From Methanomassiliicoccaceae archaeon UBA113 (lineage in GTDB: Archaea > Thermoplasmatota > Thermoplasmata > Methanomassiliicoccales > Methanomethylophilaceae), in contig DAXB01000042.1 of assembly GCA_002506175.1 (NCBI GenBank), positions 1 to 56,236 on the forward strand: a stretch of 56,236 nt of DNA, read 5' to 3'. Below are positions 26,850-32,029 of this stretch, piece by piece; positions within the stretch are counted from its first letter, which is position 1; each line of letters opens with the position of its first letter. The translations under genes were made by a program, and so were the position numbers. The notes under the pieces are model-generated. The model saw nothing but the letters and a program-made list of their open reading frames with translations. It was not told the origin of the DNA and did no database searches.

Positions 26850-28256
26850 TTATTTACTATAAACGTGAAGCGGTCGGGCATCCTTGGATGTGTTTCCCCT
26901 GAGGGCGGAAGCACCCATTCCTATGATGCACATGGCGGTGCAGACGATAAATGACCATCTGATGACTTCGAGGAACTGTCCGTAGGTCTCCGGACAGAGG
27001 TTATCCATGGAGCCCATTATCAGCGAGATGAACATCATGGCTATTCCCATGCTCACGACCATTCCTGTCTGCCTCATGAAGGACAGCAGTCCAGATGCCT
27101 CGCCCGTGTACTCCTTTGGGACTGAGGACATGAGAATGGTGGTGTTCGGGGCGGAGAACAGAGAGAATCCGATTCCTGCCAGGACCATGGTGATGACAAC
27201 TATGACGAGTGTAGTGTTCATATCGTAGAAGATGAACGTGGCCATTCCGACGGCTATGATCGCCATTCCGGCCGTGGGCAGGATGTATTTCCTCTCGATT
27301 CTGTCACACAGTTTTCCGCACAACGGCGTTCCTACAGCCTGAATCGCAGGCTGAACGATCATCAGGATGCCTGCTTCGGTGGCAGTCAGCTGACCGATGC
27401 TCTGAAGGTACAGCGCCAGGAAGAACGATACCGAGAACGATGCGGCATAGCTCATGAACGTTGCGACGCAGGATCCGGAGAACACCTTGTTCCTGAACAG
27501 TTTCATCTCCAGGAGGCATTCCCTGTTCCCAATCTGCATCTTCACGAATACCGCGACCAGGATGATTCCCATTATGAGCGATGTGAGTGCGATGACGTTC
27601 GGGAGGTTCATCACCCCCAGCATCGAGAGGCCTATGGCGAGCGCATAGACCACAGCGCTCTTGGTGTCGAAGGAGCTTCCTTTCGCAGGAGCAATATCAT
27701 CTTTGAACATATGCAGGAACAGCATCGATGCCAGGCTCAAGGGAACGGTGGTGATGAACAGCACCCTCCAACCGAACAGGTCGTTGAACAGGCCTCCGAC
27801 CGCAGGGCCGATGGAAAGGCCGGTGTATATGCACATGGCCTGGATCCCCAGGATCGCACCCCTTCTGTTAGCAGGGACGACATCGACCAGGAGGGATACT
27901 CCTTCGATGGCCAAGGCAGCTGAACCTGCTCCTATGATCATCCTGCATGCTATTACGAACCAGAAGTTCGGCGACACGGATGCGAGGATGCATCCGGCCA
28001 TCACCACGACTAACCCTATGAAGAATGTCTTTTTCTTCCCTATGATGTCTCCGATCTTGGCTATCGGGACCATGAAGATAAGCGATGCCAGGAGGAATGC
28101 CGAGTTCACATAGGCGAGATCGTGGGATCCGACGTTGAATTCCGCACCTATATTGACCAGCGACAGGTTCATCATGGTGCTGAGGAGCGGAGTGATGAAA
28201 CATGAGATGCAGCAAGCAAGAATGATTGCCTTCACAGTCCCACGTTGATATGACAT
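26850..28256 (-). CDS. MFS transporter (DHA2/EmrB-like, about 14 TM)
   Basis: KIGDIIGKK motif A, GPAVGG..GWR, F.APNT. Confidence 0.9.
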   Translation of the reverse strand: MSYQRGTVKAIILACCISCFITPLLSTMMNLSLVNIGAEFNVGSHDLAYVNSAFLLASLIFMVPIAKIGDIIGKKKTFFIGLVVVMAGCILASVSPNFWFVIACRMIIGAGSAALAIEGVSLLVDVVPANRRGAILGIQAMCIYTGLSIGPAVGGLFNDLFGWRVLFITTVPLSLASMLFLHMFKDDIAPAKGSSFDTKSAVVYALAIGLSMLGVMNLPNVIALTSLIMGIILVAVFVKMQIGNRECLLEMKLFRNKVFSGSCVATFMSYAASFSVSFFLALYLQSIGQLTATEAGILMIVQPAIQAVGTPLCGKLCDRIERKYILPTAGMAIIAVGMATFIFYDMNTTLVIVVITMVLAGIGFSLFSAPNTTILMSSVPKEYTGEASGLLSFMRQTGMVVSMGIAMMFISLIMGSMDNLCPETYGQFLEVIRWSFIVCTAMCIIGMGASALRGNTSKDARPLHVYSK

Positions 28257-28314
28257 GTCGCACCTGATACCAAATCAACGATTTCGTATATACCTCTATA
28301 ACGTTCCTGGTTCC

Positions 28315-29220
28315 ATGGCAGTGTACAACAGCATCATAGAGACTATCGGGGAGACACCTATCGTCCGTCTGAATAAGATCGCGCCAGAGGGTTCCCACAT
28401 CTATGTGAAGATCGAGAGGGGAAACCCAGCCGGATCAATCAAGGACCGTGCGGCCCTGTTCATGATCGATGATGCCGAGTCCAAAGGGATCCTGAAGAAG
28501 GGCGGAACCATAGTCGAGCCCACATCAGGAAACACAGGCATAGCCATCGCAATGATAGCGGCAGTACGCGGATATAAAGCCGTCATCATCATGCCGGATA
28601 CCATGTCCAAGGAACGCATACAGGCTATGCGCGCCTATGATGCGGAGGTAATCCTCACACCCGGAAAAGAGGGAATGGACGGAGCGGTGAGGAAGGCTGA
28701 AGAAGTGGCGCAGGAGAGGGGCGGATGGGTCTGCGGGCAGTTCGACAACCTAATGAACTCCGCCGCACACAGGATGACGACCGGTAAAGAGATACTCAGG
28801 GACCTCCCGGATGTCGATTACGTTTTCGCCGGATTCGGAACAGGTGGCACAGTGTCCGGAATATCCATGGCGTTCAAGGATGCTGGTTCCAAGGCCAAGG
28901 TCGTAGGGGTGGAACCTGCGGAGAGTCCTCTCGTATCTGAGGGGCATGCAGGACCTCACAAGATCCAGGGAATCGGAGCAAATTTCGTGCCTGGCAACTT
29001 CAACAGGGAGCTCCTGTCCGACGTGGTAGTCGTCAAAGGGGATGATGCCATCAGGACCACCGTCGAGATGGCAAGGAAGGAGGGGATATTCTGCGGAATA
29101 TCATCCGGAGCTTCCGTATATGCGGCCATTCAGAAAGCCAAGGCCGAGCCCGGTAAGAAGATCCTCGCCATCCTTCCGGACGGCGGAGAGAAGTATATGA
29201 GCACGGGAATCTTCGATTGA
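28315..29220 (+). CDS. cysK: cysteine synthase A
   Basis: IGETP, NPAGSIKDR, EPTSGNTG, GTGGT, HKIQGIG, GISSG. Confidence 0.95.
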   Translation: MAVYNSIIETIGETPIVRLNKIAPEGSHIYVKIERGNPAGSIKDRAALFMIDDAESKGILKKGGTIVEPTSGNTGIAIAMIAAVRGYKAVIIMPDTMSKERIQAMRAYDAEVILTPGKEGMDGAVRKAEEVAQERGGWVCGQFDNLMNSAAHRMTTGKEILRDLPDVDYVFAGFGTGGTVSGISMAFKDAGSKAKVVGVEPAESPLVSEGHAGPHKIQGIGANFVPGNFNRELLSDVVVVKGDDAIRTTVEMARKEGIFCGISSGASVYAAIQKAKAEPGKKILAILPDGGEKYMSTGIFD

Positions 29221-29222
29221 CC

Positions 29223-30350
29223 TCATTGACTGACGGTCTTCGGATTCACGAGCTTGTTGACGATCGCTTCTTTCACAAAGGCATTGTACTCGTCCATGTC
29301 GGGTTTGTTGTCCAGGATAAACTGGATCTCGGATACGACATGGGCGAATATCTCCTTGTATGCACGGCAGGAATCACCGCCGTTCTCTTCAAGACCTCTC
29401 TCATAGCATGCATCCACGCTGCACCCTCCGTTGCAGAACTTGAAAATATCACATGAGGCGCATTTCTCGCGTCTTTTCACGGATCCAAGGAGTATGTTCC
29501 TGAAACCGTCCGATTGGAAAGCATCTGCAATAGATGATATGCTGTCGATGTTGCCCATGCAGAATTCCTTGGGGCATGCCTTGGCGCACGGGTAGAGGGA
29601 TCCGTCAGGATACATGCATATCCATTTTGTCAGACAAGATGTGTGGGCGCAGTCCGATGGGACGGGCTCTCCAAGATAATTCATGATGTAGAGGTAGAAC
29701 GGCATCAGAGGTACTCTGACGGTCTTGTCCTTCAGCCAGGAGTCGAACGCCTCTATGCTTCCCTTGATGAACTCATCGTTGTCGGGAACATAGCATCTTC
29801 CGCATCCGGCAGGTATAACCGGAGACAGGGAGACGCTTGTCGCCTTGTCTCTGAAGAACTCATAGATCTCCTTCTGCTTGGATGCGGTATCTTTGGAGAT
29901 CGTGGCGCTGACCGCGTACTTGTTGTCCTTGGCTGACAGGGTGTTGAGGGTCTTCTCCACGTCGCATTCCCTGAGGACATTGTTGTACGGACCTTCGTAG
30001 GAGATTCCGATGTTGATCTTCTTCTCCCTGCAGTATGCCATGAACCTTTTGTTCAGGAGAGTACCGTTCGTATTGATCGTATTCCCATATCTGAACGAGT
30101 CCTTCCCGAAGCACTTCTCTTCAAGGGCTATGACATCCTTGTAGAATGACATCGGGAGCGTCATCGGTTCCCCACCGTGCCATATGAACCAAGCGGTCTG
30201 ATACTCCTCGGAAGCCATCTTCATTATCTTTTCGATTTTGGAAAGGTCAATTCTGAGATCCTTCCTCTCTTCAGGTATGTGGTAACAGTGCTTGCAGTCA
30301 GTATTGCAGAAAAGCGTGGGTTTGATGACGACAGTAATATGGGGTTTCAT
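29223..30350 (-). CDS. radical SAM/SPASM domain enzyme (putative peptide maturase)
   Basis: CNTDCKHC (CxxxCxxC), WHGGEP, TNGTLL. SPASM cysteines CAHTSC..YPDGSLYPC..CASCDIFKFCNGGC..C. Confidence 0.92.
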   Translation of the reverse strand: MKPHITVVIKPTLFCNTDCKHCYHIPEERKDLRIDLSKIEKIMKMASEEYQTAWFIWHGGEPMTLPMSFYKDVIALEEKCFGKDSFRYGNTINTNGTLLNKRFMAYCREKKINIGISYEGPYNNVLRECDVEKTLNTLSAKDNKYAVSATISKDTASKQKEIYEFFRDKATSVSLSPVIPAGCGRCYVPDNDEFIKGSIEAFDSWLKDKTVRVPLMPFYLYIMNYLGEPVPSDCAHTSCLTKWICMYPDGSLYPCAKACPKEFCMGNIDSISSIADAFQSDGFRNILLGSVKRREKCASCDIFKFCNGGCSVDACYERGLEENGGDSCRAYKEIFAHVVSEIQFILDNKPDMDEYNAFVKEAIVNKLVNPKTVSQ

Positions 30351-30361
30351 GAGAAAAGGAA

Positions 30362-30391
30362 ATCCGCCGCGTACGATGCTTCGCGGCGGAT
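30362..30391 (-). terminator. 10-bp stem-loop followed by a pyrimidine tract, between the precursor and rSAM genes
   Basis: ATCCGCCGCG/CGCGGCGGAT, followed on the minus strand by TTCCTTTTCTC. Confidence 0.65.
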
Positions 30392-30402
30392 GGTAATGTT
30401 AT

Positions 30403-30723
30403 TCAGAAGGGCCAGAAAGGCCAGACACCGAAGAAACCATCGGTCACATAGCAACAGCAGATCAGGCATACGACGACGCTTCCGATACAGCAAGCGTGCC
30501 ATCCCCATGAGTTGCAGTATCCCTTGTCGCTGCAACAGCAGTAACTGCAGGGTGTGAGTCCGCCGTGCTCGTTGTCGCTCTCTTTATCGAAGCGCTCAGC
30601 ATGCTCGTTGTCCTGGGGAAGTCCCTCCATGGAGAACGCAATGAATGCTGCGGGGGATTGACTCTCGTACAGTGCTGTCAGTTTTTCGACGGATTCTGCA
30701 TCGTATGACATGATTTTCACCAT
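30403..30723 (-). CDS. Cys/Trp-rich putative RiPP precursor peptide (106 aa)
   Basis: Acidic leader ending NEHGG. The core has 11 Cys (CSYCCC, CLICCC) and 4 Trp. TATA-like TTTATATAG upstream at about 30763-30771. Confidence 0.75.
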   Translation of the reverse strand: MVKIMSYDAESVEKLTALYESQSPAAFIAFSMEGLPQDNEHAERFDKESDNEHGGLTPCSYCCCSDKGYCNSWGWHACCIGSVVVCLICCCYVTDGFFGVWPFWPF

Positions 30724-30848
30724 TTAGGCTGATGCCTTGATAACTTGCGTACTGTGTTTGCCTATATAAATTTGTCATCTGGCAGATATAAAAAATGTTA
30801 TGCTGGGTATTTCACTAACGCTAAATAATCGGGGTGCCTTGCTAGTTT

Positions 30849-31754
30849 ATGCTCGGTTATACCGTCCCGTTCTACGGCCGTTTATCTCCGGCGGACCGTA
30901 ACGTTTACCGCAAATATTACTGCGAAGGCTGTCACCAGCTCAGGGACGGTTTCGGTCTGACAGGGACGCTGACCGTGAATTACGATATGACGTTCAACAC
31001 CATACTCTTGAATGGGATTGTGGGCGACGTCTTGGAGTTCGAGGGAACGACATCCAAGCCGTGCATTCTGTGCAAGCCGAAGGCGGACTCGGACCTCATG
31101 AGGAAGATGGCCGCATACACGCTGATCCTTGCGAAATGGGAGCTGCACGATGACGATACAGACAAGCCGTCCGTCAAGGCCAAGGTGGCATCCGTCACTC
31201 TCGCAAGAGCCATAGACAAGGCTGTCAGCATGTATCCGGAATACGATAGGATGGTCGGTGTCGGTTTCGACAACCTCCGTGAGCTGGAGATCAGCGGATG
31301 CAAGGATGCCCGTCTCATGGGTCTGACCTTCGGAGAGGGTCTGATCGGTGCGCTGAGGGATGTCGCGGGGGACTATTCGAGCGAGGATCTCGATAACGTG
31401 TTCAGGGAGCTCAGCGCCATTGTGTACCTCATGGATTGCGTGGACGATCTGGATGAGGATTTCATGGAAGGTACATACAATCCCTTGCTGCCGGAGAAGG
31501 GGTACACCAACGCCATGGACTTCAGGCTGAAGAATGTATACGAGCTGACATCCCTGTTCAATACCACGATCGGATCCCTTCAGAGTTCTTACTCCAAGGT
31601 GCGTCCGAAGATGAAGGGGAATGTCGGTATCTGCGATAACATCGTGTACTACGGCATCCCAGATTCTGCGAAGAAGGTTATGATGGGCAGCTCTTCTGCG
31701 AAACTGAGTGTCAAGAATCTCATTTTCAACCGCAAAGAGAGGATGTCAGACTGA
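30849..31754 (+). CDS. DUF5685-like protein, possibly isoprenoid-synthase fold
   Basis: N-terminal MLGY..YRKYYCEGCHQL..G..T.NYD.TF signature. Asp-rich motifs LHDDDTD and MDCVDDLDED, then YNP. Confidence 0.8.
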   Translation: MLGYTVPFYGRLSPADRNVYRKYYCEGCHQLRDGFGLTGTLTVNYDMTFNTILLNGIVGDVLEFEGTTSKPCILCKPKADSDLMRKMAAYTLILAKWELHDDDTDKPSVKAKVASVTLARAIDKAVSMYPEYDRMVGVGFDNLRELEISGCKDARLMGLTFGEGLIGALRDVAGDYSSEDLDNVFRELSAIVYLMDCVDDLDEDFMEGTYNPLLPEKGYTNAMDFRLKNVYELTSLFNTTIGSLQSSYSKVRPKMKGNVGICDNIVYYGIPDSAKKVMMGSSSAKLSVKNLIFNRKERMSD

Positions 31755-31982
31755 TCCCTTCGGATCGAACTCGGTACAGACGTCCAGTTCGAACCTCTCG
31801 GAACCATCTCTGGTGCATGTTCCCTTCGAGAACATGTTGCAGTTCTCGCAGCAACCCGGACGGTATCTGCCGCAGTCGGATTCGGGGTCGGTCGGTCTGG
31901 ATTCCGCTTTACAGGTCCAAGAAGTGCCATCATGTTTGCAGAACCTGCAGGTCTTGCATCTATGGTAGTTCTCGTTCGTCAT
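31746..31982 (-). CDS. small Cys-rich protein with a duplicated CxxC..C..C module
   Basis: CKTCRFC..WTC..SDCGRY and CENCNMF..GTC..DVCTEF. Confidence 0.65.
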   Translation of the reverse strand: MTNENYHRCKTCRFCKHDGTSWTCKAESRPTDPESDCGRYRPGCCENCNMFSKGTCTRDGSERFELDVCTEFDPKGSV

Positions 31983-32029
31983 CGTTTCCGATATATCCTT
32001 GTTGCACATTACCCTTTCCTCGAAGCAAC

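Follow-up and report, generated by a model that had tools for sequence, protein, structure and literature searches.

The stretch analysed here (the window) comprises 56,236 nucleotides of contig DAXB01000042.1 from Methanomassiliicoccaceae archaeon UBA113 (Methanomassiliicoccales, Methanomethylophilaceae; assembly GCA_002506175.1). The system in question is a trio of adjoining genes, namely one for a radical S-adenosylmethionine (rSAM)/SPASM enzyme, one for a small Cys- and aromatic-rich protein (hereafter the peptide), and one for a DUF5685 protein transcribed divergently from the other two (Table 1). A preliminary description made from the DNA letters alone had read these genes as a system for a peptide synthesised on the ribosome and modified after translation (RiPP). 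Its three open reading frames (ORFs; 29223-30350 and 30403-30723 on the minus strand, 30849-31754 on the plus strand) are all present, and the small one is real, but its 106-aa start probably does not hold: genes called in the databases, like the 17 homologues that were aligned, use the ATG at 30711 (M1 invariant), and because they begin there, the likely product has 102 residues. The intergenic region is indeed shared by the divergent genes and likely measures 137 bp instead of the 125 bp given earlier. The trio is taken to be a genuine archaeal system for peptide modification, near-core and so far undescribed, and its three genes very probably form one pathway acting on this peptide.

Table 1. 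Genes and features of the trio locus in window coordinates (anSME, anaerobic sulfatase-maturating enzyme; FARM, first Asp-rich motif)
Feature	Position	Strand	Basis or remark
rSAM/SPASM enzyme gene, 375 aa	29223..30350	-	ORF, Pfam and NCBIfam; anSME/DynA-like
SPASM domain: C234, C239, C255, C297, C300, C306, C310, C328 and extra C259	29367..29651	-	
CxxxCxxC (C15, C19, C22)	30285..30308	-	55/56 aligned rows; deleted in genome G155
10-bp hairpin, peptide stop to rSAM start	30362..30391	-	z -3.0
Peptide gene (Cys/aromatic-rich small protein), 102 aa	30403..30711	-	extendable to 30723 (106 aa)
C-terminal W100-P101-x	30406..30414	-	WP invariant; W-P-x end 59/59
Hydrophobic Cys-rich helix 69-89, ending C85-C86-x-Y88	30445..30507	-	KD19 2.1; model
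C55...[Y/W]57-x-C59-C60 motif	30532..30549	-	aromatic-x-CC in 59/59
Y15-x-x-Q18 on predicted N-terminal helix	30658..30669	-	invariant
AT-rich intergenic region common to peptide and DUF5685 genes	30712..30848	.	sequence
Two TATA-like runs	30763-30770; 30786-30793	-; +	archaeal consensus; candidate runs
DUF5685 protein gene, 301 aa	30849..31754	+	ORF and Pfam
Invariant C25-x-x-C28 (with invariant C72)	30921..30932	+	candidate zinc site
First Asp-rich motif D101-D-x-x-D105	31149..31163	+	aligns weakly to FARM by profile (E 0.084)
Second Asp-rich motif D196-x-x-D-D200-x-x-x-D204	31434..31460	+	Y193 precedes, not Gln

Occurrence was determined in 201 genomes of the order Methanomassiliicoccales, 114 of them from the family of the window (Methanomethylophilaceae, window included) and 87 from other families. 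Orthologues of the rSAM gene were found in 103 of the 113 other family genomes, as was DUF5685 (103/113), and the two genome sets are identical (104/114 with the window). Outside the family, rSAM matches were confined to nine genomes, at 25-29% only, and DUF5685 to one bacterial-type copy. The peptide profile, which was built from 59 sequences including 58 of its own genome matches, returned one copy each in 102 of the 113 other family genomes (103/201 counting the window) and none in the 87 genomes of other families. Similar peptides had been expected beside the rSAM homologues, and 103 of the 104 rSAM genomes carry one; in the sole exception, G198, the rSAM gene is itself split by a contig break. 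The peptide gene lies directly upstream of the rSAM gene in 68/68 orthologous loci, in one of which (L070:3828-4478, genome G181) a stop codon is missing after WPF and the reading continues, out of frame, across the rSAM start, owing to an assembly error or to real read-through. The rSAM and DUF5685 genes are divergent and less than 1 kb apart in 90 of the 104 genomes, 1-5 kb apart in 8, 19 kb apart in 1, and on different contigs in 5. Ten family genomes, with a completeness of 81-97%, lack the whole trio; the four genomes of genus g10 are all among them. In the 39 loci compared, these three genes are the only ones common to all 14 genera. The same genomes, the same layout and joint loss thus bear out the trio as one unit. 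Database names on homologues of all three genes read Methanomethylophilaceae, Methanoprimaticola, Methanoplasma or Thermoplasmata, and in a phylum sample of 301 genomes DUF5685 exceeded its cut-off in 36 genomes of the family and one other. A DUF5685 tree (FastTree) follows the genus labels and separates 50 archaeal from 60 bacterial-type rows by a long branch. The correlation between the three genes' pairwise distances, 0.83-0.90, is what kinship leads one to expect and therefore shows vertical descent, not co-evolution. The cassette is single-copy, near-core and genus-structured, unlike a typical exported RiPP; a recent island was rejected as an explanation.

Purifying selection on the peptide is clear, with a nonsynonymous rate (dN) of 0.13-0.20 against a synonymous rate (dS) of 0.73-2.67 in 7/7 pairwise comparisons. 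Nine residues (Y15, Q18, C55, C59, C60, C86, Y88, W100 and P101) are invariant in 59 aligned peptides, which represent 13 of the 14 genera with a copy. Because dN is far below dS, nine residues are fixed and the profile matches once per genome in 103/201, the small ORF is more than chance, and the chance-ORF reading was rejected. The protein reads as a leader, a Cys/aromatic core and one membrane helix; such a leader/core-like precursor beside a modifying enzyme is what RiPPs in general display. Its N-terminal half varies in length and sometimes carries long charged extensions (Lys/Glu/Ala-rich and up to ~130 aa in L041, L047 and L048 of genus g11 and in L051-L055 of g7), and the Y15-x-x-Q18 pair likely serves as the leader recognition motif. 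In the core, [Y/W]-x-C occurs in 59/59 peptides and CCxY in 54/59. The residue closing the chain after WP is F in 50/59, N in 5, Y in 2, L in 1 and A in 1, and one database homologue has Tyr at W100. Each peptide contains 8-13 Cys, and its most hydrophobic 19-mer scores 1.6-2.9. The structure model is of low confidence (predicted local distance difference test (pLDDT) 62.5, predicted template modelling score (pTM) 0.27), helix 69-89 being its best-supported part; from hydrophobicity and this model, the helix is likely a membrane anchor, in agreement with the membrane association proposed earlier. The family is narrow, with about ten clusters among 1.84 billion representatives: the profile search returned 12 matches, 10 of which were judged members (8 by sequence), and two long Cys-rich proteins with 5-8 short matching stretches were set aside. 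Pfam gave no real family for the 59 peptides, nor had the window peptide an NCBIfam match.

The rSAM/SPASM assignment of the neighbouring enzyme was confirmed by Pfam Radical_SAM (PF04055, E 1.5e-10), by the SPASM model TIGR04085 (38.3 bits, cut-off 27) and by its CxxxCxxC motif. The maturase models gave a different picture: TIGR04085 was passed, but every maturase model shown missed its cut-off (bits/cut-off: DynA 149/450 as the best, TIGR03942 (anSME) 137.7/349.45, TIGR04083 107.5/300, GrrM 94/310, AmcB 79/425, DarE 72/650, PapB NF047865 51/340, SCIFF TIGR03974 50/425, CcpM 37/500, XyeB 33/450). No N-terminal RiPP recognition element (RRE) was found in the enzyme, whose radical motif begins at residue 15 and leaves no room for one. 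The closest solved relative of its profile is anSME (E 4e-49), with CteB third (E 7.6e-20), and its eight SPASM Cys align with those of anSME. An extra Cys, C259, is present in 54/55 orthologues (YPCAKAC here where anSME reads YPCDFY), and the residue after the third SPASM Cys is Ala, Gly or Ser in 55/55 (YPC[A/G/S]K), in place of the Asp that we take to be the catalytic base of anSME.

The preliminary description had named sactipeptide- and ranthipeptide-type maturation, which now appears less supported. The enzyme would then make sactionine or ranthionine thioethers from Cys to a C-alpha or C-beta, while DUF5685 decorated the remaining thiols or another site. The abundance of Cys in every peptide with four of them invariant (C55, C59, C60, C86), the rank of CteB and the fact that a C86-x-Y88 ring would itself be a beta-thioether speak for such chemistry, but it is unlikely given the missing RRE and the scores far below the SCIFF, PapB and CcpM cut-offs. 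Moreover, because the eight SPASM Cys match those of anSME, they suggest no open iron for a substrate thiol, a site that CteB presumably has.

Closeness to anSME raises another alternative, in which the enzyme converts Cys of the peptide, or of a sulfatase elsewhere, to thioaldehyde or formylglycine. One orthologue bears the database name 'Arylsulfatase regulator', and DarE variants can yield formylglycine according to PMC10705402. This is nevertheless highly improbable: the sulfatase domain PF00884 was found in 0/11 genomes (that of the window, 80% complete, and ten relatives, 98-99%) versus 10/14 controls, the TIGR03942 score falls far short, and the presumed base Asp is replaced in all 55 orthologues. 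On the same grounds a sulfatase maturase with a sulfatase partner, which would have spoken against a RiPP, was rejected. The preferred activity is oxidative cross-linking, which the enzyme probably performs. DarE, an RRE-less anSME homologue, forms a bond between residue 1 and the C-beta of residue 3 (PMC10705402), and in W-P-R the Trp is cross-linked by WprB to the third residue (PMC11851443); the fixed i,i+2 pairs of the peptide would fit this pattern by analogy.

The divergent gene encodes a full-length DUF5685 protein (PF18937, 137.1 bits against a gathering score of 26.7, E 9.9e-40, model positions 1-271 of 272), and the earlier "DUF5685-like" label can be replaced by membership. In a structure model from 110 sequences (pLDDT 92.7), the top 39 VIA rows are all prenyltransferases of the trans-IDS type, IDS being isoprenyl diphosphate synthase (best Z 15.9, rmsd 3.4, 249 residues; MoeN5 Z 14.3, Ord1 Z 12.2). 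DUF5685 is therefore predicted to adopt the trans-IDS fold, which agrees with the possible prenylation suggested previously; a PDB sequence search gave nothing significant. Invariant in both archaeal and bacterial rows are D101, D105, E147, D196, D200, D204, N211, C25, C28 and C72, the five Asp and three Cys being fixed in 110/110 sequences. D196-D200 was taken as the second Asp-rich motif (SARM) by inference. The preceding columns 192-195 hold V/I, Y, an aliphatic residue and M/L (Tyr in 109/110, no conserved Gln). The consensus contains no GKxxRP-type motif, which we take to mark the isopentenyl diphosphate (IPP) site. By analogy to Zn-dependent thiol alkyltransferases, C25, C28 and C72 may possibly form a thiolate-activating Zn site. 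The genome of the window encodes polyprenyl synthases, and on balance DUF5685 is somewhat favoured to transfer a prenyl group to the peptide.

Bacterial-type loci, 83 in total and mostly from Clostridia and Spirochaetes, provide a second view of its partners; they are L049, L071 and L072 together with the 80 best among 568 confirmed ones. At 78/83 of them, a downstream ORF of at least 150 aa was selected, usually a J-domain protein; of the five loci left out, three are at contig edges and the other two do have a J protein with a CC tail, which the selection script passed over. These ORFs carry at least 3 Cys in the last 35 residues in 78/78 cases and CC in 76/78, but Trp in the last 10 in only 5/78, and upstream control ORFs show CC in 0/68. 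An rSAM-like match lay within the flanks of 1/80 bacterial DUF5685 loci, and viral contigs searched with bacterial-type DUF5685 gave none. A hydrophobic Cys-Cys segment is thus the constant feature of DUF5685 partners, which makes Cys the likelier acceptor; that the prenyl group goes to Cys of the peptide is tentatively proposed. The rival acceptor is W100, three residues from the C-terminus, with DUF5685 as a ComQ/PalQ-like Trp prenyltransferase. W100 is invariant in 59/59, Ord1 shares the fold class, and Trp is the only known acceptor for the trans-IDS-like class according to PMC13290415. Such an activity is improbable, however, since Tyr stands where a conserved Gln would precede the second Asp motif and since bacterial partners with the same catalytic residues in their DUF5685 rarely end in Trp. 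In genome G708 of another Thermoplasmatota family (L186:4638-6426), a divergent DUF5685 overlaps an ORF starting with a hydrophobic stretch and CCPCGEC, which may be a frameshifted fusion.

From the linkage, conservation and motifs, which were established directly for the trio, we infer a chemistry in which the rSAM enzyme cross-links aromatic side chains and DUF5685 S-prenylates Cys to give a membrane-anchored lipopeptide; as a whole this is plausible, at slightly less than even odds. Of the crosslinked, possibly prenylated membrane peptide of the preliminary description, the linkage of the genes, the predicted fold and the helix stand, whereas the sactipeptide-type chemistry is less supported. 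The RRE-less enzyme would first bind the Y15-x-x-Q18 helix, and its 5'-deoxyadenosyl radical would, as in DarE, abstract hydrogen from the C-beta of the third residue in three-residue motifs, with [Y/W]57-x-C59, C86-x-Y88 and W100-P-x102 as candidate rings (-2 Da each). The Asp motifs of DUF5685 would then bind an allylic diphosphate (geranylgeranyl diphosphate or shorter) through Mg2+, and substrate Cys, possibly activated at the C25/C28/C72 Zn site, would be turned into S-prenyl thioethers on the Cys-Cys helix. The product would be kept in the membrane as a housekeeping component instead of being exported as an antibiotic.

Several points weigh against the cross-linked, S-prenylated lipopeptide. 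All characterised trans-IDS-like peptide prenyltransferases modify Trp (PMC13290415). Foldseek gave no match for the DUF5685 model at E<=0.001 (best E 8e-3, same class), VIA Z values up to ~13-14 can be background for helical proteins, and HHalign against seven IDS sequences aligned the first Asp motif only, without significance (E 0.084). The eight closest non-orthologous rSAM loci (flanks of 1.5-7 kb) contained neither the peptide nor DUF5685 and hence give no pointer to the chemistry. No protease or transporter recurs across the 39 loci of 14 genera, although one could lie elsewhere in the genome, and this absence at the trio loci may also count against the proposal. Since genes are shared among kin, co-occurrence in one family does not amount to many independent events. 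Finally, in G155, the sole genome of its genus, the rSAM frame is intact (L040:3097-4200) and keeps the eight SPASM Cys, but CxxxCxxC, GGE and C259 are gone, while an intact peptide and a long-branch DUF5685 lie beside it. Either the gene is decaying or its product has a role other than catalysis, and a trio with a dead rSAM enzyme means that at least one genome can do without radical chemistry.

The same genome supports a reading of the Cys-rich protein as a membrane microprotein that binds metal or Fe-S, with both enzyme-like proteins binding it or acting on a small molecule or lipid, and no lipidation by DUF5685. The near-core, single-copy, vertical pattern would suit it, as would nearest folds that include MoeN5 and chain-elongating IDS. 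Against this stand invariant motifs, leader-like and aromatic, that with their variable spacer fit a precursor, a radical motif kept in 55/56 rSAM rows, a DUF5685 consensus without the GKxxRP-type motif, and a Cys-tail rule that spans unrelated DUF5685 partners, which together make it quite unlikely.

Outside the order, five of 300 sampled Clostridia-class genomes hold an rSAM relative at E<=1e-50. The closest clostridial one (L162:1689-7566) lies directly before a gene for a 1577-aa protein, with phage-lysis-like genes adjoining; the N-terminus of this protein, which has no NCBIfam family, is rich in W/Y/D/E repeats and is a possible fused rSAM substrate. In G182 (L050:2504-5079), a second AT-rich rSAM/SPASM pair, one member ~30% identical to that of the window, has no peptide or DUF5685 nearby.

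DarE, DynA and the three-residue cyclophane enzymes (GrrM/OscB, XyeB, AmcB) resemble the trio in having an anSME-like rSAM/SPASM protein without N-terminal RRE and an adjoining precursor, and DynA, DarE and triceptide precursors likewise carry a conserved aromatic-x-x motif (here [Y/W]-x-C and the W-P-x end, each 59/59). The trio differs by an rSAM enzyme under the cut-off, a precursor of 102 aa with a Cys-rich hydrophobic helix, the lack of a conserved exporter or protease, the presence of DUF5685 and a near-core distribution in an archaeal family. WprB, in contrast to the trio's enzyme, belongs to the twitch type and requires WprC; precursors in that study are of WPR or WxR/K types, and its Table S7 includes six archaeal rSAMs (PMC11851443). 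ComQ, PalQ and the P domain of ChrPC (and Ord1) share with DUF5685 the predicted trans-IDS fold, two Asp-rich motifs and an adjoining small peptide with a near-C-terminal Trp. Trans-IDS-like peptide prenyltransferases have a Gln before the SARM in common (PMC13290415); DUF5685 does not have it, carries three extra invariant Cys, shows no sequence-level match, and has partners that share Cys-Cys tails instead of Trp. In bacteria, DUF5685 with a Cys-string J-domain/TPR protein has the same invariant Asp, Cys, Glu and Asn and a hydrophobic Cys-Cys partner end, but the archaeal copies lie across the long branch and have a free small protein with an rSAM enzyme as partner. SCIFF/ranthipeptide systems (CteB-CteA, PapB) and methanogen TIGR04083 are alike in a widely kept Cys-rich peptide with an rSAM/SPASM enzyme in gut anaerobes or methanogens; the trio's enzyme lacks an RRE and lies far below their cut-offs, and its peptide has no NCBIfam or Pfam family. 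Eukaryotic farnesyl- and geranylgeranyltransferases (FTase/GGTase) act on a Zn-activated thiolate. The proposed outcome, an S-prenyl Cys as membrane anchor, resembles theirs (reviewed in PMC13290415), but the fold differs, the peptide has no CaaX motif, and homology is not implied. Overall, the trio would act in the manner of an RRE-less cyclophane maturase combined with a transferase like ComQ, yet it fell outside both in the membership tests run. No description of the cassette was found in a literature search that covered few subscription papers and no supplements, nor by passage search of PMC9258230 and PMC11324757, and DUF5685 was named once, within a list (PMC9403866); that the preliminary description did not recognise the combination as a described class agrees with this.

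Around the trio, the hairpin before the rSAM start has similar counterparts in close relatives, with changed stems, and a scan for sigma-70 promoters and terminators stayed at chance level. A PALP-family cysteine-synthase-like gene (28255-29220, plus strand) ends 2 bp from the rSAM stop and lies near the trio at 16 loci from 6 genera, often accompanied by a presumably MetA-like gene, a possible tie to cysteine supply. Convergent on DUF5685, an 87-aa protein with several CxxC motifs (31746-32009, minus strand) has no Pfam or NCBIfam match, and ORFs similar to it form a cluster from 18 loci in 7 genera. In genera g3, g6, g11, g14, g15 and g16 (L031-L048) the flanks differ, with a 105-aa protein without NCBIfam match and what we take to be an acyl-CoA-ligase-like gene and an ACT/metallo-hydrolase-like gene. 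The major facilitator superfamily (MFS) transporter of the window was rejected as a dedicated exporter, being absent among conserved neighbours. In G051 (L049:4290-7599), a bacterial-type DUF5685, a CFCC-like-tailed J-domain protein and a DnaK-like gene form an insert in an archaeal contig, with ribosomal-protein genes on one side and a proC-like gene on the other, through transfer or contamination. One DUF5685 has an in-frame TAG (G090:C6:28525-29430), possibly pyrrolysine, which Methanomassiliicoccales encode according to a title cited in PMC9258230, and one rSAM gene has an in-frame TGA (G122:C22:15967-17088).

With one peptide and two enzymes, the trio offers a small testable system for DUF5685 function. 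Should the acceptor be Cys, it would represent prokaryotic protein S-prenylation on a fold that so far prenylates only Trp in peptides. A wider and more speculative claim is that DUF5685 proteins are prokaryotic Cys S-prenyltransferases with a trans-IDS fold and a Zn-thiolate site, that the trio makes a cross-linked, multiply S-prenylated archaeal membrane microprotein with near-core status in gut Methanomethylophilaceae, and that the same family lipidates Cys-string J-domain co-chaperones across Clostridia; if true, this would be a prokaryotic counterpart of eukaryotic protein prenylation. For the family itself, the proposed chemistry would mean that an rSAM-modified peptide is near-core in host-associated methanogens, and such a lineage-specific membrane component may matter to work on enteric methane and possibly to ways of curbing it.

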